NCBI GenBank assembly: GCA_020345765.1 | Contig: CP070770.1 | Span: 2,868,612 to 2,932,611 of the forward strand | Origin: Deltaproteobacteria bacterium | GTDB lineage: Bacteria > Desulfobacterota > G020345765 | Direction of reading: 5' to 3' | DNA: 64,000 nucleotides | Part shown: piece after piece, positions 51,822 to 63,124 of the stretch | How positions within the stretch are numbered: the first letter of the stretch is position 1 | How the letters are laid out: the number at the start of each line of letters is the position of its first letter | Position numbers and translations under genes: made by a program | The notes under the pieces: model-generated | Told to the model about the DNA's origin: nothing | Databases searched by the model: none | What the model saw: only the letters and a program-made list of their open reading frames with translations

Positions 51822-52562
51822 ATGAAACATGGATTGTTCATAACCGGAACCGATACCGGAGTAGGGAAAACCCTGGTCACCGCCGCACTCGCTTCCCTAC
51901 TTCGGGCGGAAGGAATAGATGTAGGAGTAATGAAGCCGGTCGAAAGCGGTTGCCCGCGGCAGAAAGGGAAGCTTGTGCCCCAGGACGCCCTTTTTTTGCG
52001 GGAGGCAGCCGGGAGCGAGGATGACCTGGAGCTGATCAATCCCTGCCGACTCGAAGCCCCTTTAGCTCCCAGCCTGGCGGCGGAAAGAGAGGGGGTGGAG
52101 ATTAACCTGGGAAAACTGATTGAGTGCTTTCAGACATTGAAAGAAAGACATGATTTTATTTTAGTTGAAGGGGCCGGGGGGCTGCTGGTTCCACTCAAGG
52201 AAAGGTATCTGGTTTCCGATCTTGTTCAGCTATTCCAGCTTCCCCTCCTGATAGTCGCTGCCTCCCGGCTGGGGGCAGTCAACCATACCCTGTTGACAAC
52301 AAGATGCGCCCAGTCCCTTAAGATCGAGATAGTCGGAGTAATCCTCAATAATCTGGAGGAGGAAGGAGATACAGCATCCCGGAGTAATCCCCATCTGCTC
52401 CCGCATTTACTGGAAGTTCCCCTCCTTTGTGTGATCCCCTTTATTCCCCGGATTCACGAATTGAAGAAAGAAAAGCTGGCGGGTCTAATTAAAGAAAGGA
52501 TCAGTCTTTCTGTGCTCGTGGGAGGTCCAGAGCAATCAAACCCTGATCCCGGAATTTCTTGA
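51822..52562 (+). CDS. bioD: dethiobiotin synthase
   Basis: 246 aa. P-loop FITGTDTGVGKT. The start abuts the bioA stop. Confidence 0.85.
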   Translation: MKHGLFITGTDTGVGKTLVTAALASLLRAEGIDVGVMKPVESGCPRQKGKLVPQDALFLREAAGSEDDLELINPCRLEAPLAPSLAAEREGVEINLGKLIECFQTLKERHDFILVEGAGGLLVPLKERYLVSDLVQLFQLPLLIVAASRLGAVNHTLLTTRCAQSLKIEIVGVILNNLEEEGDTASRSNPHLLPHLLEVPLLCVIPFIPRIHELKKEKLAGLIKERISLSVLVGGPEQSNPDPGIS

Positions 52563-53535
52563 TGATCTTGATCACCTGGGATGACTTAATCGGGCTGATG
52601 GCAACGATTGCCTTGATACTCTTAGCACCGTCAATCCGGGAGATTATAAAGCCGGCCTGGGAAGGAAAGCTCTTTTGCTCGAGTTCCTTTTTGGCAATAA
52701 TCAGATGGGGAACCAATTTGATATCGATCCCCTCGATCTCCGGTGGGTAAACATTTGCTTCCAAAGACTGCGGATCAAGGGCGGTTATTTTAGTAATTAC
52801 ATCTTCATCCGGGGCAAAACAATATTCGTCTTCCACGATGTGGCTTGTATCGATCCAGCCATTGTTGTAAAGCTCATAGAGTTGAGAATAAAAGGGAAAC
52901 GGGAGAATATGAAGCCGGTAGATCATCTCCCCGATAGTCTTGCCTTCCATAATTAGTTCCTCAATGGCTTTTCCCTTTAGAAGACCGGAGGGCAGTTCAG
53001 CGTCATCCCTTTTAAGCTTGAGTACGGTCTCATCGGAGGTGAAGATTTGTCGGAACCGCTTCCATTCATCACTGCGATACGTACCCTCCATCGCGATGCT
53101 GTCTGGGTTGATAGAGACCCGGATTTTTAGATCCGGGGGGAGCTCGTCTTCAAGGAAGATGAAATAGCCGTCATCCCAGACAAAGATGTCGTAGATAGTT
53201 TCCACCACCTTAATCGAGAGGACATCGCTTATCTGGCGCTCATTCATCAGGCCGGTCATTACCAGAATGTCACCAATATGAGCCTTGGTTTCCGTCTGGG
53301 TTTCCAGGGCCAGGATCAGGTCAATCTCCCCCATTCTTCCGTAGCTGAGCAGAAATTGTCCCAGGTACTCCCGGGGATTATTGGAGTTGGATGAGATGAT
53401 CGTTCCTTCCTGGAAATAGACCCATTTGATCCATTCTTGCCACTGGATGACCATGGTGCCCGTCTTTCTGGATGCCCCTATCCACTGGATAAGGTCAGCG
53501 AGACTCATGGTAGATAATGTTCCTTCTAAGGCCAT
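52501..53535 (-). CDS. DUF4388-domain protein with C-terminal GFxxSRxDG module
   Basis: 344 aa. The N-terminus LEGTLSTMSLADLIQWIGASRKTGTMVI...VYFQEGTII fits the DUF4388 pattern. The C-terminus is QAGFIISRIDGAKSIKAIVAISP...IKKFRDQGLIAL. Confidence 0.7.
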   Translation of the reverse strand: MALEGTLSTMSLADLIQWIGASRKTGTMVIQWQEWIKWVYFQEGTIISSNSNNPREYLGQFLLSYGRMGEIDLILALETQTETKAHIGDILVMTGLMNERQISDVLSIKVVETIYDIFVWDDGYFIFLEDELPPDLKIRVSINPDSIAMEGTYRSDEWKRFRQIFTSDETVLKLKRDDAELPSGLLKGKAIEELIMEGKTIGEMIYRLHILPFPFYSQLYELYNNGWIDTSHIVEDEYCFAPDEDVITKITALDPQSLEANVYPPEIEGIDIKLVPHLIIAKKELEQKSFPSQAGFIISRIDGAKSIKAIVAISPIKSSQVIKIIKKFRDQGLIALDLPRAQKD

Positions 53536-53545
53536 TTTCCTTACA

Positions 53546-54301
53546 CTAACCGGCGGGGTTTCGGGTTAACTCCTGGCTGATAAAGGTAGGCGGTCGGGCC
53601 TCAATCTCCCTCTTTACCGTCTCATACTTATCCTTGGTGCCCAGATCTACCCAGTATCCTTCCATTTGGTATCCATAGACTCTTTTGCCCTTCCGGATCA
53701 ACTCGATATAGGTATCATTTATTGAGGAGAAGATGTCGGCAGGGATGTATTGAAAGATCTCGGGCTCGAAGATATGGATCCCGGTAAACATGAATTGTTT
53801 CAGATCCTGCCCGGATTCATCAGGAATTTTGTCCAGGAATTGCCGAATTCTACCCTCCCGATCGATCTCGATGACACCATAGGAATCTTTGTTTTCCTCA
53901 CTGCGTAGTACCATCGTAGCTAATGCTTTCTTTTTCTGGTGAAAATCCATTGCCCCGTTCAAGTCGAAGTCAACCAGAATGTCACAGTTAATAACCAAAA
54001 ATGTATTTTTTGGGAAAAATCCCTCCACTTTTTTAATTCCACCTCCGGTGCCGAGGATCTCCGGTTCGTCAGAGTAGCTTATCTGGAGTCCGAGCTGGGA
54101 GCCGTCTCCTAGTTCTTCTTTAATGGACTGGGGATGATGGTGGAGATTAATAATGATCTCATTGAACCCCCATTTCTTTAAGAAAGCAAGGGTGTAGTTT
54201 ATTTAGGGACGGCCGGAAAGGGGAAGGAGAGCCTTGGGAATCCCTTTGGTCAGCGGAAGCAAACGGGTACCATAACCGGCAGCCAGGATCATTGCCTTCA
54301 T
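53546..54301 (-). pseudogene. MurU-like sugar-1-phosphate nucleotidyltransferase interrupted by an in-frame TAA at codon 33
   Basis: From ATG 54301: [32 protein letters not shown], then TAA (complement of 54203-54205), then INYTLAFLKKWGFNEIIINLHHH...GTGGGIKKVEGFF... in the same frame, running into the 53546..54028 ORF. Homologs have Leu at the stop position (GxPLI). Confidence 0.6.
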
Positions 54302-54322
54302 ACTTTCTCTCCGCACTGACTT

Positions 54323-55435
54323 TTACCTAAATTCTTCCACATATTTCTCCAATACCTGTTTCAACTCTTTTAGATAGTCATACTTATCTAAATTCTTCTT
54401 GACATAACCTAAGGTGGGAGCAATGTACTTGAGATAACGGTCGTTGTTTTTAGCCAGGTTGATATACCCAAACCTACCGGCGGCCTTCAGGTTCCGCTGA
54501 ATACTGGTTAGATCAAAGAGTTCCCGGAACTCGGTGCGGTCGATCCGGATCCCCTCGATGTCTTCCTTTCCGTCCAGGTAATAGTGGATCATTTCATCGA
54601 TAAAACTCTCCTCTAGGGTCAGGTAGGAATCCCTGAGCAGAGAGGCGAGATCATACTGACAGGGCCCCAAAAGGGCATCCTGAAAATCAAGGATTTTAAT
54701 CTGTTCGTTCTGAACGATCAGGTTACGACTGTGATAATCACGATGGGTGAAATAACGGGGCTGGCTCGATAGCCTCTCAGAGATCTGCTTAAAACTTCTT
54801 TGGATTATTTTTCGGTCCCTATTGGGAACCTCTATGCCGTGAAGTTTCTCAATTCCATATTCAAGGAAGTGCTCAAACTCCCACATAAAAAGTTGGGTAT
54901 TAAAGGCCTGACGAAAGGCAAAGCAATGGGCGTCCTTCCTTTCAGTCCCCCGGAACTGAAGCTTGATCAGCTCATCAACGGCCTTCCGATAATACTTTCT
55001 CTGGATTTTCCGTTCCTTTCCCTTAACCTTTTCCTCCAAAAGGGTTTCGCCTAGGTCCTCCAGAAACAGGAGGCCCCGGCCTTCATCGTAATGATAGAGC
55101 CGGGGGACATTGAGCCCGCAGAGATGGAGATGCCTTAAGATATTAATGAAGGGGAGCTCGTCAAAGGTTTGGGATATGGTCGATATTTCCTCGGAGACAA
55201 TTTGAGGATCAGGTTGATTAAGTTTCATCAGGATTATAGAGTTCTGCCCACAACCCGCTACCGCATCCCGGAGCCTGACCCGATAGTAGCTCCGATTAGA
55301 GGCATCCCCGGCCAGCCTTTCCAGCTCTATATCCTTTACCGAGGGAACTAAGGATTCCCTGATTGATTGGATTACTATGCGCTTCATTTGATTGAGATTA
55401 TCAAAAATTTTACTACCCAACCTAATCTCTGTCAA
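54323..55435 (-). CDS. aminoglycoside-phosphotransferase-fold kinase, AmgK (anomeric MurNAc/GlcNAc kinase)-like
   Basis: 370 aa. It has the Brenner motif HRDYHSRNLIV and ILDFQDALLGP. It lies directly upstream of the MurU-like gene, as in the AmgK-MurU pair. Confidence 0.65.
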   Translation of the reverse strand: MTEIRLGSKIFDNLNQMKRIVIQSIRESLVPSVKDIELERLAGDASNRSYYRVRLRDAVAGCGQNSIILMKLNQPDPQIVSEEISTISQTFDELPFINILRHLHLCGLNVPRLYHYDEGRGLLFLEDLGETLLEEKVKGKERKIQRKYYRKAVDELIKLQFRGTERKDAHCFAFRQAFNTQLFMWEFEHFLEYGIEKLHGIEVPNRDRKIIQRSFKQISERLSSQPRYFTHRDYHSRNLIVQNEQIKILDFQDALLGPCQYDLASLLRDSYLTLEESFIDEMIHYYLDGKEDIEGIRIDRTEFRELFDLTSIQRNLKAAGRFGYINLAKNNDRYLKYIAPTLGYVKKNLDKYDYLKELKQVLEKYVEEFR

Positions 55436-55490
55436 ATCCCAGATTCGTAGTCCATCGGAATACAGAAACTTACTGTTTCAATTAATATAA

Positions 55491-55515
55491 TGTCTCATTT
55501 ATATTTAATGAGACA
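55491..55515. promoter_or_regulatory. perfect inverted repeat TGTCTCAT-N9-ATGAGACA (second copy of the candidate UAS)
   Basis: TGTCTCAT is at 55491-55498 and ATGAGACA at 55508-55515. A further TGTCTCAT at 55626-55633 is partnered with ATGAGAAT at 55647-55654. Confidence 0.5.
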
Positions 55516-55741
55516 CTTTATGCCTATTAATTTATCTGGATCTATTATTCCCCCCATAATATACCATATTTCTTGGGGGTATTCAGCTTGTTCGGAAGTA
55601 TCTTTCTGGAGACTGTATATTAAACTGTCTCATTTAGAATAATTAAATGAGAATTGCCTGATTTTTTATTTACATAAATAAATTATATTAATATCTTTAT
55701 TTTCAAATAGTTAGAAAAAGCGATTAGGATTGTGACAGGTT

Positions 55742-55757
55742 TGGCATACTCTTTGCC
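55742..55757 (+). promoter_or_regulatory. sigma-54-type promoter TGGCAT-N5-TTGCC
   Basis: GG is at 55743-55744 and GC at 55755-55756. It is preceded at the same 25-nt gap by ATATCTTTATTTTCAAATAGTTAGAA (55691-55716). That block matches 18768-18793 at 25 of 26 positions. Confidence 0.6.
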
Positions 55758-55933
55758 AATAATAGAATTGAACGTTAAGAAAGGCAAGTTTTTCCGTAGA
55801 GTCATAAAGTTACATAAAATTACTCTAAGTAGGGTAAGAGAGCTTTTTCACCTATATCACTCTTCCTGAGCCAATCAAATGGGCTGATATAATTGAGTAT
55901 AAGTGGCAAGAGTAGAGCAAGGCGACTTTTTTC

Positions 55934-55962
55934 TTGACAAAAGACGCAAAATTTTATATAAA
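55934..55962 (+). promoter_or_regulatory. sigma-70-like promoter (TTGACA-N17-TATAAA)
   Basis: TTGACA is at 55934-55939 and TATAAA at 55957-55962, about 70 nt upstream of the J-protein ATG. Confidence 0.5.
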
Positions 55963-56030
55963 AAGTTGCACCCTTGTGTAATCAGTTAAAAAATTTGTTC
56001 TTCTATCCGATTCGGAAAAAGTATTAATAT

Positions 56031-57272
56031 ATGCAAGAGAAAGATCTTGTCATAGGGTCGGAAACCCTGAAGTATCGACCGAGAATCAACCAGTCTCTGG
56101 ATCTCCGCAAACTTAGCATTGATCCTAAGGAAGGATTTCTTCTTTCGAGGGTAGATGGTAACACCAGTGTGGAACAACTCCTGATGGTGAGCGGTATGGA
56201 TCGGGAGGAGACAATGCAATCCCTGTCTAAGCTTCTCAAACAGGGAATAATTTTCTTCGCAGAGAAACTGAAGGAAAAAACCGAGAGAAAAGAACAAGGA
56301 GCACCGTATAGTCAGGTAAAGGGCAAGAAAGCCGAGAAAGAGGAAGATTGGGTAGTAGATGAGGGGGTGGAGATTTCTGAGAAAGATAAGGAGAAGATCC
56401 ATTCCACTTACAAATCTCTGGGTAATCTTAATTATTATAAGATCCTGGGAATTGAAAAGGGTGCCGATCAGCGAAAAATCAAGAGTGCTTATTTCAGCCT
56501 TTCCCGGGAGTTTCACCCGGATCGCTACTTCCGTAAATCCATCGGTAGATATAAGAGCATGTTGGAGAATATTTTCAAGAAGGTTTCCGAAGCCTATGAG
56601 ATACTCTATGATCCCCATTCTCGGGAGGAGTATGATAAGAGCATCATATCCGATATATCCGAGGAGAAGATAATCGAGGCCCGGAAACAATCGGAGAAGC
56701 CGATCCGGAAAGGGCATCATCTGGACAAGGCACTCCAGCCAATTATAGAGAGAATGGGTAAGGCCAAAGGCTTTTATAAGACGGGGAAGAAAGATGTTCT
56801 CGATAAAAATTATAAGTCTGCTAGTGTAAACTTCAAGCTGGCCGTCGCTTACGATCCTTACAATGAGCAGTATAAGGAGAGCTTGGCCGAGGCTCAGGAG
56901 ATTGTTAAGAAGCAGGAGTCGGAGAAGCTGATAAGGAGGGCTGCCTTTGAGGAAGAGGTTGGCAGGTTCGCCGATGCCCTGAAACTTTTGGAGCAAGTGG
57001 TTCAGATCACCTCGGACAATCCCGAGCCCTATCACAAGATGGCACAGTTACTTCTTAATCATAACCGGGATCTCCGTCAGGCGAAGAACTACTGCCTTCG
57101 GGCAATAGACATGGATTCAGATAATACCGAGTATTATCTGACCCTCGGATCGATTTACGAAGCTGCCGGGCTTTTCCGCAATGCCGCCCGGGAGTTCCAG
57201 AAGGTATTAAATTTAGATAAGGGAAATTCTGAGGCCCAGGAAGGTTTGAAGAGGTTAAAGAAATTCCACTAA
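56031..57272 (+). CDS. J-domain protein with N-terminal GFxxSRxDG module and C-terminal TPR repeats
   Basis: 413 aa. It has KEGFLLSRVDGNTSVEQLL...LLKQGIIFF (aa ~33-76). The J domain is NYYKILGIEKGADQRKIKSAYFSLSREFHPDRY, with an intact HPD. The C-terminus has TPR-like repeats. Confidence 0.8.
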   Translation: MQEKDLVIGSETLKYRPRINQSLDLRKLSIDPKEGFLLSRVDGNTSVEQLLMVSGMDREETMQSLSKLLKQGIIFFAEKLKEKTERKEQGAPYSQVKGKKAEKEEDWVVDEGVEISEKDKEKIHSTYKSLGNLNYYKILGIEKGADQRKIKSAYFSLSREFHPDRYFRKSIGRYKSMLENIFKKVSEAYEILYDPHSREEYDKSIISDISEEKIIEARKQSEKPIRKGHHLDKALQPIIERMGKAKGFYKTGKKDVLDKNYKSASVNFKLAVAYDPYNEQYKESLAEAQEIVKKQESEKLIRRAAFEEEVGRFADALKLLEQVVQITSDNPEPYHKMAQLLLNHNRDLRQAKNYCLRAIDMDSDNTEYYLTLGSIYEAAGLFRNAAREFQKVLNLDKGNSEAQEGLKRLKKFH

Positions 57273-57298
57273 GGTCAAGTTAGAGAGGAAGAAAGGCA

Positions 57299-58873
57299 AT
57301 GGGAAAAGTTATCGGTATTGACTTAGGTACTACTAATTCCTGTGTTTCCGCAATGGATGACGGGCGTCCGATCGTTATTCCCAGCAAGGCGGGATACCGA
57401 ACCACCCCCTCGGTATTTGCGGTAACCGAAAAGGACAAGAAACTGGTCGGTCATCTTGCCAAGCGGCAGGCAATTACCAATCCTAAAAACACCATATATT
57501 CGGCGAAAAGACTCATTGGCCGCCGCTTTAGTTCACCCGAGGTAAAGAAGGCAACCAAGACCTATTCCTACCAGATTACGAAAGGTCCCCACGATGATGT
57601 GCGCGTTATCAGCGGAGGTAAAGAGTACAGCCTTCCCGAGATCTCGGCAATGATTCTCCTGGAGATGAAGAGAATCGCGGAGGAGTATCTGAGAGAAAAG
57701 GTTACCGAGGCAGTAATTACCGTTCCTGCTTACTTCAATGACAATCAGCGTCAGGCTACCAAGGACGCCGGAATTGTGGCCGGTCTGGAGGTTCTGCGTA
57801 TTATCAATGAGCCGACGGCAGCTGCCCTGGCCTACGGGATGATTAAGAAGAGGCGGGAGGAGAGGATAGCCGTTTATGACCTGGGCGGAGGTACCTTCGA
57901 TATCTCCATTCTGGAGCTGGGGGCCGGTGTCTTCGAGGTAATCTCGACTGCTGGCGATACTTATCTCGGGGGGGAAGATTTTGATACGGGGATAATGGAT
58001 TACCTGGTTGAGGAGTTCTCCGGGTCAACGGGAATCAATCTGAGCGACGACCGGATGGCCCTTCAGCGACTCTCGGACGCCGCCGAGAAGGCCAAATGTG
58101 AGCTTTCCGCGGTGAAGGAAGCACAAATTAATCTGCCGTTTATTGCCTCGGATACCCGGGGTCCCAAGCACCTTGACCTAAGGTTGACCAGAGAGAAGCT
58201 TGCGGAATTGACCAAGGATATCGTGGAGAGAACGATCAAGATCTGTGAGGAGACAATTCAGCAGGCAAAGCTAAACAAGAAAGACATTAATGAAGTAATC
58301 CTGGTGGGAGGACAGACCCGCAGCCCACTGGTCCAGGAGATGGTAAGGAATTTCTTCGGCAAACAGCCGCACAAGGGAGTCCATCCTGATGAGGTGGTGG
58401 CCATAGGGGCGGCAGTGCAGGCCGCCGCACTCACCGAGGAGAAAACGGAGCTACTGCTTTTAGATGTTACCCCACTATCCCTGGGGATCGCCACCCACGG
58501 GGGATTCTTTACCCCACTGATTGAACGGAATACTACCGTCCCCGTCCGCAAGAGTCATATATTCACCACTGCCCGGGATGATCAAACCACGGTTAAGATC
58601 CGGGTGCTTCAAGGGGAAAGTGACCGGGCGGATGATAACGAGCTTTTAGGAGAGTTTATGCTGAGCGGTATCCGCAAGGCCAAAAAGGGAGAGCCGGAGA
58701 TCGATGTTAGCTTCGATATCAATGCCGACGGGATAGTGAATGTTTCCGCGAAGGACTTGGAAACAAAGAAGGAGCAATCCATAACGGTTACCGCTTCGAG
58801 CGGCCTTACCGAGGATGAGGTTCGCCAGATGGCGGAAGAGGCTCAAATGTACGAACTGGAACTGAAGCAATAA
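57299..58873 (+). CDS. atypical short Hsp70 (DnaK paralog lacking the helical lid)
   Basis: 524 aa. NBD motifs [22 protein letters not shown] and VILVGGQTR are present. The SBD-beta region is present. The protein ends (…[25 protein letters not shown]) where the canonical DnaK lid begins. Confidence 0.85.
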
Positions 58874-58884
58874 GAGAGCGGATT

Positions 58885-59697
58885 ATGCACAGCAACTCTG
58901 AAGTCAATAAGTATCTGGAAGAGGGGCTCAATTTTTACGGGCTGGGCAAATTCAAACAAGCGATCGAGTGTTGGAAAAAGGTTCTGGAGATAGATCCCAA
59001 TAATTCGCTGGCAAAGGACTATATTGAGTCTGCCGGGGGAACGGTAGATAGGGAAACAGCAAAGCCTCCAAGTAGATTAGAGGTGCCTCCTGTCCGTACA
59101 ACAAAGCCACCGCCGCCTTCCCCACCTCCTCCGCCGCCGGAGCCCGATCGGAGGACAAAAGTCACTGCTCCACCGACAGAGCCCGATCGGGAAGCCAAAG
59201 TTATCTCTCCGCCGCCGAAGCCTGAGCGGGAAGACAGGTTTAGGCGGGAAATGCCTTTTTCTAAGGAGATTCCGGAAGAACCACTCCCTCACGTCAGGGA
59301 TGTTCCTCCTCTGCCCGAGCCTGATCTGGAGGATAAACTTGGCCTTGCTAAGAGCTTCTTTGCGGAAAACCAGTTTGAACAGGCGATGGAGATATTTGAA
59401 TCCATCCTCCAGGAAGAGCCTGACAATCTTGATGTTCAGGGGTACTATGAGATGGCCCGGAGTCAACAGCTAAAGAAGTATAAATCCGAAGTAGGTGACC
59501 TGTCTCAGATTCCCCGGGTGAGCAAATCCCAATCGGAAATCTTGCAGCAAGATTTAGACCACGAGGAGGGTTTCATCCTCTCTCTTGTTGATGGTAGTCT
59601 GGAATATAACGATTTATTTTCCCTGAGTAATATGGATGACTTTAAGACCTACCGGATCATCTGTAGACTTCTTCGCCAGGGGATAATCGAGGTCTGA
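58885..59697 (+). CDS. TPR / proline-rich repeat protein with C-terminal GFxxSxxDG module
   Basis: 270 aa. It has an N-terminal TPR (YGLGKFKQAIECWKKVLEIDPNN), a PPPPSPPPPPPEPDR... repeat region, a second TPR, and the C-terminus EEGFILSLVDGSLEYNDLF...LLRQGIIEV. Confidence 0.7.
   Translation: MHSNSEVNKYLEEGLNFYGLGKFKQAIECWKKVLEIDPNNSLAKDYIESAGGTVDRETAKPPSRLEVPPVRTTKPPPPSPPPPPPEPDRRTKVTAPPTEPDREAKVISPPPKPEREDRFRREMPFSKEIPEEPLPHVRDVPPLPEPDLEDKLGLAKSFFAENQFEQAMEIFESILQEEPDNLDVQGYYEMARSQQLKKYKSEVGDLSQIPRVSKSQSEILQQDLDHEEGFILSLVDGSLEYNDLFSLSNMDDFKTYRIICRLLRQGIIEV
59140..59256 (+). repeat. three imperfect 39-nt tandem repeats inside the TPR/Pro-rich gene
   Basis: GAGCCCGATCGG is at 59140 and at 59179. 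A diverged AAGCCTGAGCGG is at 59218, giving a 39-nt period. The repeats encode P(E/K)P(D/E)R-x-x-KV-x-x-PP units. Confidence 0.6.
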
Positions 59698-59708
59698 AAG
59701 GATACCTG

Positions 59709-60746
59709 ATGCTGAATAAGATGAAGACTATACTGACCTATTTAGACACTCCGATAATTATCGGGGATGCCAATAACAAGCTTATTTATCTTAATCCGGC
59801 CGGGGAGGAGGTATTTCAGAGGAAGGTAATGGAACTCGTAGGCAAGGAGGTTAGAGAATTATTCAGCGGCGATAGTTGGGAGGGCATTCTGGAAACCATT
59901 ACCCAGGTGAGGAAACAAAACCGCCCTTCCCGGATCAGCGTTGAGGCAGGTTCCCGTAACTTCAGGGCCAGTATCTCGCCGATTATCGGTGATGAAGAAG
60001 GCTTTATTGGATATGTAATAAATTTACTGGATATCGCCGAGGGTAAAGTGGCCGACCAATTGAAAGCCGATGCCTTAATAATTGTAAACCAAATACGCGA
60101 TCCTCTTCTGGATATCGCTGACACCTTGAATGAGTTGAAAAAAAAGGTTTCTTCCGGGCTCAAGAAGGAAGCAAGTAGGTTAATTGAAAAGGGATTGGAA
60201 GATTCTCAAAAGGTGATAAGATTGGTAGACGAGCTTCTCGGTTTCCCGGATGCTGAATCCAAAAAGCCAGAGGTTAAGCAGGAGGAACTGGACATCTCCA
60301 AGATAATCAAAAATACGATCAGTGATATGGAACCCTTTGCCAAAAAAGAGGGAGTGGCGCTGGAGTGGACGATTCCGGCCAATCTCCCGAAGATGTTAGG
60401 GGATCAGGAAAAATTAACCTATGCCCTGAACAGCCTTTTAGGGTTCTCGCTTAATCATACTCCGGCGAAGGGAGTAATCACGGTCTCAGGAAAAACCGGT
60501 CAGAAAAAGGATGGGCGGCGCCCTCTTATTATTACGGTAAGCGATACCGGTGAGGGTATTGACCAGGCTGAACTGCCTCATCTATTCGACGGCAATTCTC
60601 CGAAGGCTCACTCAGAGGAAGACGAACCCTCAGTGCGGTTAGGCGCGGTTAAGGATATCATTGAGGCACACCAGGGAAGGATCTCAGTGGTCAGTGAGAA
60701 GGGGATCGGGACTACTTTCTCAATTGTCCTCCCTGCGGTAAATTAG
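59709..60746 (+). CDS. PAS-domain histidine-kinase-like ATPase lacking the phospho-acceptor His
   Basis: 345 aa. It has a PAS-like N-terminus. The DHp-like helix is IIVNQIRDPLLDI, where the H-box SHELRTPL aligns with VNQIRDPL (Asn codon at 60087-60089). N, G1 (DTGEGI) and G2 (GIGTTF) boxes are intact. Confidence 0.7.
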   Translation: MLNKMKTILTYLDTPIIIGDANNKLIYLNPAGEEVFQRKVMELVGKEVRELFSGDSWEGILETITQVRKQNRPSRISVEAGSRNFRASISPIIGDEEGFIGYVINLLDIAEGKVADQLKADALIIVNQIRDPLLDIADTLNELKKKVSSGLKKEASRLIEKGLEDSQKVIRLVDELLGFPDAESKKPEVKQEELDISKIIKNTISDMEPFAKKEGVALEWTIPANLPKMLGDQEKLTYALNSLLGFSLNHTPAKGVITVSGKTGQKKDGRRPLIITVSDTGEGIDQAELPHLFDGNSPKAHSEEDEPSVRLGAVKDIIEAHQGRISVVSEKGIGTTFSIVLPAVN

Positions 60747-60770: not shown

Positions 60771-61970
60771 GTGAAGAAGATTGTTCTGGCATATTCTGGG
60801 GGTCTGGATACCTCGGTATGCATCCCCTGGCTGAAACAGAGGTATGGTGGTGAGATTATAGCCTTCCTGGCCGATCTAGGACAGGAGGAAGAATTAGAGG
60901 GCTTAAAGGAGAGGGCACTCGCAATTGGAGCCAGCAAGGTTTTCCTCGAGGATCTCCGGGAGGAGTTTGCGAGGGACTTTGTTTTTCCCATGCTACGGGC
61001 CAATGCCCATTATGAGGGTAGCTACCTTCTGGGAACCTCCATTGCCCGACCCCTGATCGCCAGAAAGCAGATCGAGATCGCTGCCCAAGAAGGTGCCGAT
61101 GCGGTTGCCCACGGTGCTACCGGAAAGGGTAATGATCAGGTTCGCTTTGAACTTACCTACCTTGCGCTTAACCCCGAGATAGAGATCATTGCTCCCTGGC
61201 GGGAATGGGAATTCAAGTCACGCCGGGCTCTTATCGATTATGCGGCAAAAGAAAAGATACCAATTACCGCCACCCGGGAGAAGCCTTACTCCTCTGACCG
61301 TAACCTTTTCCATATCAGCTTCGAGGGAGGAATCCTGGAGGACCCCTGGGTCGAGCCCCCGAAAGATATGTTTGTTCTCACCCGTTCTCCCCAAGAGGCA
61401 CCGGACAAAGAGACCGATATTGAGATTGAGTACCGGGAGGGGAATCCGGTGGCCCTTAATGGGGAACAACTCTTGCCGTCCGAGCTTCTGAGTAAACTGA
61501 ATGGCATTGGAGGGGAGAATGGAATTGGAAGGGTGGATCTGGTGGAGAATCGTTTCGTGGGAATGAAATCCCGGGGGGTCTACGAAACCCCGGGAGGCAC
61601 TATCCTCCATATTGCCCATCGGGCAGTGGAGTCTCTCACCATGGACCGGGAGGTGCTGCACCTTCGGGATTCCCTGATCCCCAAATATTCCGAGCTGATT
61701 TACTACGGGTTCTGGTTCTCTCCGGAGCGGGAGCTGCTGCAGGCTACTATTGATGAATCTCAAAAAAATGTGACCGGGACCGTTCGGTTGAGATTATATA
61801 AAGGGAACTGCCAGGTTATCGGCCGGAGGTCGGATAGAGCCCTTTATCACCCGGGATTAGCTACCTTTGAAGAGGATAAGGTCTACAATCAAAAGGATGC
61901 CGAGGGATTTATCCGCCTTAATGCCCTCCGGCTCATGCTCAGGAAAATAACGGATAAGGGGAATAAATAG
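60771..61970 (+). CDS. argG: argininosuccinate synthase
   Basis: 399 aa with a GTG start. Motifs: AYSGGLDTS, and [12 protein letters not shown] within [15 protein letters not shown]. Confidence 0.95.
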
Positions 61971-61978
61971 GAGGCTGT

Positions 61979-63124
61979 ATGCGCAAGAAATATATTCTGG
62001 CACCGGGCCCTACCCCGGTTCTCACCGAGGCACTCGGAGCAATGGGGAGCCCGATTATTCACCATCGTTCCCCGGAGTTTACTCCGATACTGAAAGATGT
62101 TCGGGAGGGGTTGAAGTGGCTCTTCCAGACGAAAAACGAGGTGCTATTCTTTGCCTCTTCCGGAACTGGGGCAATGGAGGGGGCGGTGACCAACCTTCTC
62201 TCTCACGGCGATAAGGCTCTGGTAGTGGAAGGGGGTAAATTCGGGGAGCGCTGGACGGAGATCTGCCGGGCCTACGGGGTAGAACCGGTAGTCATCAAAG
62301 TAACCTGGGGAGAGGCAGTAGAGCCTGCCCGGATTGAAAGCGCTCTGAAGGATGATCCATCCATTAAGGCGGTTTTCACCCAGGCCACCGAGACCTCTAC
62401 CGGAGTAGTGCACCCAATTAAGGAGATAGCCGCGATCGTCAGCAGGTATGAAGACACTTTGATAATTATCGATGCCATAAGTGCCCTAGGAGCCTCGGAG
62501 ATACTTACCGATAAATGGGAACTAGATGTGGTAGTCTCCGGTTCCCAGAAGGCACTGATGCTTCCTCCGGGACTCGCTTTTGCGAGCGTGAGCGAAAAGG
62601 CCTGGAGGTTTGCCGAGAGAGCAAACCTGCCCAAGTATTACTTTAATTTCAAAAAAGAGCTTAAAAGCCTTACCGAAACTAACCAGAGTGCATATACCCC
62701 GGCCATCTCCCTCCTGATGGGGCTCCGGGAATCCATCAAGATAATGCAGGAAGAGGGCCTGGATAACATCTTTGCCCGCCACGATACCCTTGCCCGGGCT
62801 ACCCGGGCCGGGGTATTAGCTATGGGTTTAGAGCTATTTGCCCCTAAGGCTCCCAGTAACTCACTCACGGCGGTTAAGGCCCCTCCGGGGATTGATGGAG
62901 GAAAGGTGGTCAAAACCCTGAGGGAGAAATACGGGATAACCATTGCGGGAGGTCAAGCCGAGCTTAAGGGAAAGATCTTCCGGATCGCCCACCTGGGCTA
63001 CTTTGACCGATTTGACATTATTACTGCCCTCTCCGCATTGGAGATGACACTCAACGAGCTGGGTTTTAAAGTAGAGAGAGGACGGGGGGTAAAGGCGGCC
63101 GAAGAGATTCTGGAAAAAATGTAA
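61979..63124 (+). CDS. class-V aminotransferase (phosphoserine / serine-glyoxylate aminotransferase type)
   Basis: 381 aa. The PLP lysine is SGSQKALMLPPG. It lies immediately upstream of serA, which suggests a phosphoserine aminotransferase role. Confidence 0.75.
   Translation: MRKKYILAPGPTPVLTEALGAMGSPIIHHRSPEFTPILKDVREGLKWLFQTKNEVLFFASSGTGAMEGAVTNLLSHGDKALVVEGGKFGERWTEICRAYGVEPVVIKVTWGEAVEPARIESALKDDPSIKAVFTQATETSTGVVHPIKEIAAIVSRYEDTLIIIDAISALGASEILTDKWELDVVVSGSQKALMLPPGLAFASVSEKAWRFAERANLPKYYFNFKKELKSLTETNQSAYTPAISLLMGLRESIKIMQEEGLDNIFARHDTLARATRAGVLAMGLELFAPKAPSNSLTAVKAPPGIDGGKVVKTLREKYGITIAGGQAELKGKIFRIAHLGYFDRFDIITALSALEMTLNELGFKVERGRGVKAAEEILEKM

Follow-up and report, generated by a model that had tools for sequence, protein, structure and literature searches.

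What does a small module shared by three otherwise different proteins do next to an Hsp70 gene? The question is raised by a 64,000-nucleotide (nt) stretch of the genome of Deltaproteobacteria bacterium (GenBank assembly GCA_020345765.1, contig CP070770.1, positions 2,868,612 to 2,932,611), here called the window. The module is found in a J-domain protein (the J-protein), in a protein with tetratricopeptide repeats (TPR) and a proline-rich region that is encoded just after the Hsp70 gene (the third protein) and, on the opposite strand, in a protein with a PATAN (DUF4388) domain. The preliminary description of this locus, made from the sequence alone, had proposed a module of ca. 45 amino acids with a winged-helix-like fold, the docking of its carriers to a common partner or to each other, and a tie between the amgK/murU/DUF4388 operon and the chaperone genes. 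We find that the module marks a conserved, specialized Hsp70 operon in Myxococcota-like bacteria and belongs to an apparently undescribed winged-helix family.

Three copies of one domain

The three look-alike segments were confirmed at the places described, off by a few codons at most. In the J-protein, EGFLLS...GIIFF corresponds to residues 34 to 76 (nt 56130-56258), the previously given start at 56115 being five codons early, and the equivalent segments are residues 228 to 270 of the third protein (nt 59566-59694) and 294 to 336 of the DUF4388 protein (nt 52528-52656, minus strand). Whole-protein BLASTP related the J-protein to the third protein (E = 3e-9, 39% identity over 59 amino acids) and to the DUF4388 protein (E = 9e-6), and the last two to each other (E = 1e-5), with alignments confined to the module regions and nothing else of note. 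Since this similarity begins ca. 20 residues N-terminal of the EGF/AGF start, at a conserved proline in a (V/I)P.(V/I) strand, the shared segment is real but ca. 45 amino acids is too short for it, and the real unit extends over ca. 65 to 70 amino acids from this “VPxV” strand (Table 1).

A hidden Markov model (HMM) of the three copies, run against the six-frame translation of the window, recovered these three only, the next match having an E of 2.2. With subfamily HMMs (see below) built without the window sequences, the J-protein copy scored 87 bits as J-type, the third-protein copy 88 bits as third-protein type, and the PATAN copy 90 bits as PATAN-type (41 and 39 as the other types), with cross-subfamily scores of 33 to 70 bits; a family HMM of 155 sequences gave 94 bits for copy 2 and 62 for copy 3. 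The three segments are homologous copies of one real domain.

A large family with three subfamilies

Scored exhaustively against 1.84 billion representative proteins, the three-copy profile revealed a large family, with 3,679 protein clusters at an E of ≤1e-3 and 273 at ≤1e-10. Nearly all of the best 150 matches span the whole profile, and one match (P0005), a repeat protein, is an obvious false positive. A word-indexed homologue search with the alignment of the three modules had returned nothing, the module being too short and divergent for the index. The consensus of the family reads lG.l..VPrV.vs..El.wl.LDHRAGFLLSrIDG..S.EDllDvSGMprfEtlRIL..LL.qGvI. Most of 162 domain hits were placed at the C terminus (126), with 17 internal, 6 N-terminal and 13 made up of the module alone. 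The domain partners among 149 members, TPR (36), DUF4388 (13) and DnaJ (8), are exactly the three contexts of the window.

The family has no name so far. As to a possible existing entry, no Pfam-A family covers the module in the window proteins or in the 149 members, and no NCBIfam model lies over it in the window proteins. Member proteins are called “hypothetical protein,” “curved DNA-binding protein CbpA,” “TPR repeat protein” or “DUF4388 domain-containing protein” in the databases. An exact look-up of the TPR and PATAN proteins of the window found no record, and a PDB sequence search with the module profile gave insignificant matches only (best E = 0.11, PilT). Among the papers searched, none has both DUF4388 and DnaJ, and those listed for PATAN with J-domain or DnaK contained nothing relevant. 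A family of thousands of clusters without a Pfam or NCBIfam model merits definition, and a model would better annotate the entries now listed as “hypothetical,” “CbpA” or “TPR protein.”

Within the family, every J-type module has another J-type module as its nearest neighbor (46/46), the same is true of the PATAN-type (16/16), and third-protein modules are nearest to other third-protein modules or to unlinked C-terminal copies. The third-protein type is the best conserved, with a mean identity of 48% versus 36% for the J-type. Identity between J and third-protein modules is equal within the same locus (29.5%) and between loci (29.7%), so that concerted evolution, recent duplication and gene conversion could be discarded, and the modules are old and separately maintained. 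The J-, third-protein- and PATAN-type modules are thus ancient, distinct subfamilies.

Predicted fold and charge

AlphaFold2 (AF2), run on the J-protein copy alone with a 45-sequence alignment, produced a confident model (predicted local distance difference test [pLDDT], 86.1; predicted template modeling [pTM] score, 0.69) of three helices and a small antiparallel β-sheet, in the order β-α-α-α-β (strand 8-11; helices 24-32, 39-45 and 50-62; strand 66-69). Foldseek against the PDB retrieved winged-helix domains with query-normalized template modeling (TM) scores of 0.68 to 0.73 and probabilities of 0.99 to 1.00, yet with E-values of only 0.03 to 0.06. The best of these matches are chains of SEA/GATOR1-type complexes (TM, 0.70 to 0.73), which we take to be Npr2/Nprl2-type subunits; others are the RPC39 winged helix, which like that of the Npr2/Nprl2-type subunits binds protein, Lrp/AsnC regulators and the insert of MetAP2. 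A few family members match Crp, MarR, TrmB, IclR or PqqD models, one to three of the 149 per helix-turn-helix (HTH) model at an E of <1e-3. The copies of the window stay below the gathering score of every HTH family, the best being HTH_28 with 15.3 bits versus a cutoff of 25. In all, the winged-helix guess of the preliminary description is supported by the model, by the TM scores of ca. 0.7, weak as the E-values are, and by these few members, and the module is predicted to have a winged-helix fold but to belong to no named HTH family.

The wing hairpin is absent from the AF2 model, in which the N-terminal strand pairs with the last one, after which the C-terminal copies end. The mean net charge of the family is -2.5, and 86% of the copies are neutral or acidic (98% at or below zero in the third-protein type). 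An acidic family without a wing hairpin argues against DNA binding.

A conserved Hsp70 operon

Eighty genome loci were fetched by the module motif GFLLSR[VI]DG alone and scanned with HMMs for the module, J-domain, Hsp70 and PATAN. They come mostly from Myxococcota genomes and metagenome-assembled genomes (MAGs), with a few from Acidobacteriota and Bdellovibrionota, a Spirochaetales MAG and a “Gammaproteobacteria” MAG. An Hsp70 gene was found on the same strand in 59 of the 80. Wherever there was enough upstream sequence (51 loci), a J gene stood directly upstream of it, without exception, and its product started with the module in 43 of these 51. Directly downstream of Hsp70, a protein ending in the module was encoded in 46 loci; both module proteins were present in 30. 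The recurrent order is therefore module-J-TPR, Hsp70 and TPR/Pro-rich-module, in many cases with argG next. In 52 loci, the TPR region at the C terminus of the J-protein is conserved as well. The third proteins vary from ca. 100 to 600 amino acids and are often proline rich, and a TPR-like hairpin just before the module is common to them. The Hsp70 comes either in a short form of 515 to 526 amino acids, as in the window, or in one of ca. 608 to 620.

Homologues of the next gene of the window, coding for a PAS-HATPase protein, were detected downstream of Hsp70 or of the third gene in 13 loci, and in 26 of the 80, argG was located after the Hsp70 block in the same orientation (phmmer E, 1e-159 to 1e-185). 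This argG-chaperone synteny is unexpectedly stable (the window and loci L011 to L074). In Archangium, Cystobacter and Vitiosangium (L002 to L010 and L014), the architecture of the third protein is present as well, but neither an Hsp70 nor a J gene lies within 10 kb, so that in that suborder the third gene is unlinked from the chaperone genes.

The chaperone genes of the window

The plus-strand gene row is tight, with gaps of 8 to 26 nt (Table 1); the Hsp70 gene begins 26 nt past the J gene and ends 11 nt ahead of the third gene. Pfam finds the J-domain of the J-protein (PF00226, 63.4 bits versus a cutoff of 27.8, residues 134 to 202) and several TPR models further on, and the HPD tripeptide is at residues 162 to 164 (nt 56514-56522). 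By the Pfam cutoff and the HPD, it is a J-domain protein (Hsp40). It does not qualify as a canonical (type I/II) DnaJ, since TIGR02349 gave 63.1 bits versus 377.2 with only the J-domain aligned. Its 159 full-length homologues have been automatically named CbpA, DnaJ-domain or TPR protein.

The Hsp70 matches positions 1 to 519 of the 599 of the Pfam HSP70 model (722.9 bits) and exceeds the cutoff of PRK00290 (798.6 versus 648). Aligned to residues 1 to 520 of Escherichia coli DnaK, it ends eight residues later (ca. DnaK 528), without lid helices B to E and the tail; the core domains are matched and the helical lid is not. In the third protein, Pfam detects TPR_1/TPR_2 at residues 10 to 40 and TPR_6/TPR_19 at 152 to 186, and a 39-nt tandem repeat (nt 59129-59236, 2.8 copies, 74% matches) encodes its Pro-rich PPPEPDR(E/R)xKVxxP repeats. 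Longer Pro/Arg-rich repeats are found in the Archangium/Vitiosangium counterparts L003 and L009. In the PAS + HATPase_c protein, the H-box VNQIRDPL (nt 60084-60107) has Gln at the position expected for the phospho-accepting His, and Pfam finds no HisKA; it may be a pseudo-histidine kinase.

Table 1. Features of the window around the three module copies (positions within the 64-kb stretch)
Feature	Coordinates	Strand	Description
Module copy 3 (PATAN-type)	52525..52734	-	PATAN protein residues 268-337; by BLASTP, HMM, AF2
Degenerate second β-α-α-α-β unit	52837..53028	-	PATAN protein residues 170-233; by AF2, homologue alignments
PATAN/DUF4388 protein, 344 aa	52501..53535	-	PATAN 1-164 with MshEN-like insert, middle winged-helix unit, linker, C-terminal module
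murU-like nucleotidyltransferase	53546..54301	-	Pfam NTP_transferase
amgK-like kinase	54323..55435	-	Pfam APH
J-protein, 413 aa	56031..57272	+	Module, charged linker, J-domain ca. 134-203, C-terminal TPR ca. 250-400
Module copy 1 (J-type)	56058..56258	+	J-protein residues 10-76, extreme N terminus; by BLASTP, HMM, AF2
Hsp70 paralogue, 524 aa	57299..58873	+	Without most of helical lid and C-terminal tail; Pfam HSP70
Third protein, 270 aa	58885..59697	+	TPR, Pro-rich 13-aa repeats, TPR-like hairpin, C-terminal module
Module copy 2 (third-protein type)	59491..59694	+	Third protein residues 203-270, ends at C terminus; by BLASTP, HMM
PAS + HATPase_c protein	59709..60746	+	Degenerate H-box, next gene in operon; Pfam PAS + HATPase_c
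argG (argininosuccinate synthase)	60771..61970	+	Conserved downstream neighbor of chaperone genes
381-aa open reading frame	61979..63124	+	Last of plus-strand gene row

Gene fusions

Among the family members, some have the three contexts joined in one chain. P0007, P0073 and P0076 are single-chain DUF4388-module(s)-DnaJ-TPR proteins, i.e., the PATAN protein and the J-protein of the window joined head to tail. P0035 has five modules between DUF4388 and DnaJ-TPR, P0008 is module-module-DUF4388-J-TPR, and P0029 and P0100 are module-module-J-TPR. Small tandem module-module proteins also exist (P0004, P0127, P0044 and P0053). Fusions of this kind are a classical sign of separate proteins working together, and it is from them, not from neighborhood, that a functional link of PATAN to J would follow.

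Three Acidobacteriota MAGs provided another architecture (L050, 8456-10978; L065, 8693-10936; L076), in which single proteins of 700 to 840 amino acids combine a Ser/Thr kinase and a low-complexity linker with the module, an HPD-containing J-like domain and TPR. In L050 and L065, the kinase and the J-like domain were recognized by eye only, the J-domain HMM giving no match. No Hsp70 gene was located within 10 kb of these three genes.

What the module may bind

The fusion partners (J, TPR, PATAN and kinase), the tandem arrays, the conserved operon, the acidic family and the missing wing all fit a role in docking. We would give about an even chance to the module being a protein-protein docking or assembly domain, not a DNA binder, that provides a dedicated Hsp70 system with its common handle. 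Protein binding by the module, the nature of its partner and the direction of action on the Hsp70 are inferred from context. The earlier proposal of docking, whether among the carriers or to a common partner, agrees with module proteins flanking Hsp70 in most of the module-seeded loci and with the fusions; an obligate pairing of the J module with the third-protein module is unlikely because some operons have only one of the two.

The non-J part of J-proteins normally provides targeting or client binding, and in the J-protein of the window it consists of the N-terminal module and the TPR repeats. The module would then be its targeting domain, while the third protein, with TPR, a Pro-rich region, TPR again and the module, would be an operon-encoded scaffold or client, and the PATAN protein, with its MshEN-like insert, winged helix and module, the probable signal input. 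The three could be brought together by module-module association or by all modules binding the same partner, and the J-domain would then activate the cognate lid-less Hsp70 there by switching on its ATPase.

Several observations weigh against this proposal. Nine operons with enough downstream sequence have no third module protein, and the J-protein lacks the module in at least three complete operons (L012, L021 and L027). Most PATAN-module and many TPR-module genes (e.g., in Archangium and Cystobacter) are not near any Hsp70, and the partner of the module may be something general, unrelated to Hsp70. The E-values of Foldseek are weak (best, 0.03). Two of the three copies in the window are basic, the J-type with +2 and the PATAN-type with +8 (isoelectric point, 10.4), which makes nucleic-acid binding possible for them, unlikely as it is for the family as a whole.

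The main alternative is that the Hsp70 is itself the common partner, the module or its conserved basic/hydrophobic VPxV strand being recognized by the Hsp70 of the operon, so that all three proteins dock on it or are delivered to it, as IscU is to HscA by HscB. It owes this position to Hsp70 being the invariant neighbor (59 of the 80 module-seeded loci) while either module protein can be missing. The third-protein module, the best conserved, has conserved charged positions (DHRAGF..SR.DG, EE and PRLE), as expected for a conserved partner, and the Pro/Arg-rich repeats of the third protein would fit as well, proline-rich peptides being bound by DnaK-type substrate-binding domains. Even so, we regard it as unlikely, given that no Hsp70 gene lies within 10 kb of the genes of thousands of module proteins, among them the whole Acidobacteriota-like PATAN-module family and the TPR-module proteins of Archangium and Cystobacter, and that VPxV is predicted as a buried edge strand and not as a free peptide. 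If the module were instead a nucleic-acid-binding winged helix-turn-helix (wHTH), the J-, TPR and PATAN proteins would be DNA- or RNA-associated regulators with a shared target site. The fold is indeed that of wHTH transcription factors, Lrp/AsnC and MarR appear among the Foldseek and sequence matches, a few members match Crp, MarR, TrmB and IclR models, the PATAN-type copy of the window is strongly basic, and two palindromes lie in the divergent promoter region (see below). This nonetheless seems clearly improbable: the family is acidic, above all the third-protein type, the domain ends at the C terminus without a wing hairpin, the window copies reach no HTH gathering score, the palindromes are absent in syntenic relatives, and J, TPR, PATAN and kinase partners are typical of protein-interaction networks.

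Two other explanations received less weight. The module could sense a peptide or ligand by β-augmentation, like the PqqD-like recognition element (RRE) of ribosomally synthesized and post-translationally modified peptides (RiPPs), the three proteins being linked only by a shared ligand; two family members match Pfam PqqD, the RRE-containing enzymes TruD and TigE are in the Foldseek list, and the N- and C-terminal strands of the AF2 model form an exposed two-strand sheet. We hold this to be very improbable, as the similarities are slight (one member at E = 5.8e-5; Foldseek E > 1), the order of elements in RREs is β-β-β-α-α-α and not β-α-α-α-β, and the conserved neighborhood has no RiPP or peptide-maturation genes. 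As for a chance resemblance or a generic helical motif without shared ancestry or function, the short length of the segments and the frequency of helix-turn-helix-like hydrophobic patterns would speak for it, but E-values down to 3e-9, subfamily scores of 87 to 90 bits, the family size, the fold and the gene order reduce its probability to practically nothing. The two outcomes that could have undone the preliminary description, an insignificant similarity or a ubiquitous motif unrelated to the neighborhood, are both contradicted by these data.

Docking through the module may be part of something larger, although we consider what follows rather improbable: the module would be the assembly element of a previously unrecognized, signal-controlled Hsp70 remodeling machine. 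A PATAN protein sensing cyclic di-GMP (c-di-GMP), the TPR/Pro-rich scaffold and the J-TPR protein would join by their winged-helix modules, with contacts comparable to those of PCI domains, and the Pro-rich scaffold or a bound target would be presented to the lid-less Hsp70. Such a machine would be a bacterial counterpart of the adaptor-guided Hsp70 systems of eukaryotes, conserved across Myxococcota and with fused forms (PATAN-module-J-TPR and kinase-module-J-TPR) in other phyla. On its own, the module is a sequence signature for one specialized Hsp70 system and predicts which proteins belong together: a J-TPR co-chaperone, an Hsp70 (lid-less here), a TPR/Pro-rich protein and, via the fusions, PATAN proteins that may sense c-di-GMP. 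Module-mediated docking is a concrete hypothesis, testable by simple binding assays.

Comparison with known systems

Operon-encoded, dedicated Hsp70/J-protein systems are known in E. coli, namely, HscA-HscB-IscU and HscC-DjlB/DjlC. As in these, the window has a non-housekeeping Hsp70 beside its own J-protein, which has a special targeting domain, and a candidate client; as in HscC, the substrate-binding-domain/lid region of the Hsp70 is atypical. Unlike the HscA/HscB system, there are no Fe-S genes, and the proteins stay below the HscA and HscB cutoffs (TIGR01991, 547.9 versus 708.55; PRK05014, 23.9 versus 189 bits). Targeting would here fall to a winged-helix module that the downstream protein and the PATAN protein have as well, an arrangement that is not known for the HscA/HscB or HscC systems. 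By analogy, the system of the window may work like dedicated Hsp70/J pairs without being a member of the HscA-HscB family.

The module has the three-helix core and small β-sheet of the MarR, Crp/Fnr, IclR, TrmB and Lrp/AsnC families, with occasional weak sequence matches to them. It differs from them in being mostly acidic, in having no wing hairpin and an N-terminal strand paired with the C-terminal one, and in being fused to co-chaperone, TPR, PATAN and kinase domains and not to ligand-binding or dimerization domains. Winged helices that serve assembly instead of DNA binding are known from PCI domains, ESCRT-II subunits and Npr2/Nprl2 and Nprl3 of SEA/GATOR1. In PCI domains, helical repeats come directly before the winged helix, and the TPR-like hairpin directly before the module in the third protein and in PATAN-module proteins recalls this arrangement. 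By Pfam, no PCI, ESCRT or GATOR family was detected in the window proteins or among the families to which most of the 149 members match, and no PCI domain was among the top 50 Foldseek matches. The eukaryotic co-chaperones DNAJC3/p58IPK and DNAJC7 also combine a J-domain with TPR; in the J-protein of the window, unlike in these, the TPR comes after the J-domain.

In bacteria with complex life cycles, Hsp70 and J-protein paralogues are numerous and their roles for the most part unknown, and the module helps to sort out one system among them. Myxococcus xanthus has 15 Hsp70s and 15 J-proteins, and its noncanonical Hsp70s MXAN_2747 and MXAN_3016, with a shortened lid or no tail, have J genes numbered nearby (MXAN_2745 and MXAN_3015); when these Hsp70s are deleted, both sporulation and oxidative resistance decrease (PMC8265645, PMC11019930). 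The pairs MXAN_2745/2747 and MXAN_3015/3016 are a lead only as possible counterparts of the window genes, and the available parts of the two articles do not mention a shared N- or C-terminal module. The StkA locus of M. xanthus was discarded as a counterpart, its neighbors being SCP2-like and PhaE-like and not J or TPR-module proteins (PMC4319316).

The PATAN protein and its neighborhood

The PATAN protein matches PF14332 (DUF4388) with 90.7 bits versus a cutoff of 25 over residues 4 to 159, and in the AF2 model, the strands of this domain are interrupted by helices at 58 to 118; both the match and the model place it in the PATAN/DUF4388 family. The full-length model (pLDDT, 84.8; pTM, 0.83) is made up of the PATAN domain (1-164), a β-α-α-α-β unit (170-233), a disordered segment (244-267) and the module (275-337), the elements of which are strand 275-278, helices 292-300, 307-313 and 318-330, and strand 334-337. 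A pTM of 0.83 in spite of a 24-residue disordered linker suggests that the C-terminal module is packed onto the remainder of the protein. The middle unit looks like a degenerate second copy (strand 170-174; helices 188-196, 201-208 and 212-224; strand 228-233). It aligns with a region in which the module HMM detects the module in the homologues P0034, P0108, P0125, P0132 and P0147; in the window protein itself, this HMM does not detect it. Foldseek with the whole model found no global match.

The helical insertion of the PATAN domain (residues 55 to 107; nt 53215-53373, minus strand) resembles a tandem MshEN-type c-di-GMP-binding motif (REYLGQFLLSYG… / HIGDILVMTG…). MshEN model NF053729 gave 32.9 bits versus a cutoff of 38 over residues 58 to 107. 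Foldseek found local matches of the insertion to c-di-GMP-bound MshE-N and PilF GSPII, with 33 to 35% identity and a root mean square deviation of 0.8 to 1.2 Å over ca. 50 residues, at an E of >1. Known PATAN (DUF4388) regulators include PatA and the response regulators of the PixG/PixH/TaxP type, which act on the type IV pilus motor (bioRxiv 10.1101/2021.06.11.447907; Makarova et al. 2006, via PMC12448109). Like these, the window protein has a full PATAN domain with a helical insertion; unlike them, it has two winged-helix units in place of a receiver domain, and among its relatives there are fusions to J-domains and pairings with PilZ genes.

Homologues of the PATAN protein at ca. 31% identity are found in Acidobacteriota. 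The PATAN-module family is well conserved, with ca. 375 amino acids, and all 80 metagenome loci that were found for it have PATAN plus the C-terminal module. Chaperone genes were near the PATAN-module gene in only one of these 80 (L081, with a protein 82% identical to that of the window), which is syntenic with the window, including amgK, murU, bioD and argG; the adjacency is absent from the other 79, more distant loci. In the nearest species genome (L001, J-module 84% identical), the PATAN gene is absent after murU. The PATAN-chaperone adjacency of the window is therefore lineage specific. The proposed tie of the amgK/murU/DUF4388 operon to the chaperones is supported only in part, by L081 and, as far as PATAN is concerned, by the PATAN-J fusions; L001 and the 79 loci speak against it, and nothing links amgK or murU to the module. 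The three genes are tightly spaced on the minus strand (gaps of 10 to 21 nt) and so are probably co-transcribed, and only L081 shares their arrangement.

In 63 of the 67 PATAN-module loci with enough sequence (L082 to L160), a gene for a 117-amino-acid PilZ protein is located directly upstream on the same strand (e.g., L093, 9624-9977; L111, 9427-9780), apparently in Acidobacteriota-like soil bacteria. No PilZ gene lies near the PATAN copy of the window. Downstream of murU in L001 (1247-7280), there are genes for DUF3800, DUF4062 + HATPase_c_4, Schlafen/AlbA_2 + HATPase_c_4 and radical-SAM proteins, a region that looks like an inserted island and is possibly defense related.

Intergenic region and murU

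The divergent spacer between the minus- and plus-strand gene rows (55436-56030) is AT rich and 595 nt long. It contains two palindromes with the same 7-nt arms, TCTCATT-N7-AATGAGA (55493-55513) and TCTCATT-N11-AATGAGA (55628-55652), 135 nt apart; none would be expected by chance in the window. As a conserved operator they had to be rejected, since none of the 160 fetched loci has them, not even the syntenic relatives L081 and L001. Promoter and terminator scans were at chance level, Rfam gave no RNA family at gathering score in the window, and a link to defense systems was dismissed, there being no relevant PADLOC matches.

The murU-like gene of the window has an in-frame TAA at codon 33 (54203-54205, minus strand; …SGRP*INYT…), and it may be a pseudogene, or the stop may be a sequence error. 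L081 and L001 have CTG (Leu) at that codon and intact genes of 242+ amino acids, and the bases around it also differ, CCC TAA ATA AAC in the window versus CCT CTG ATC AGC in these relatives.

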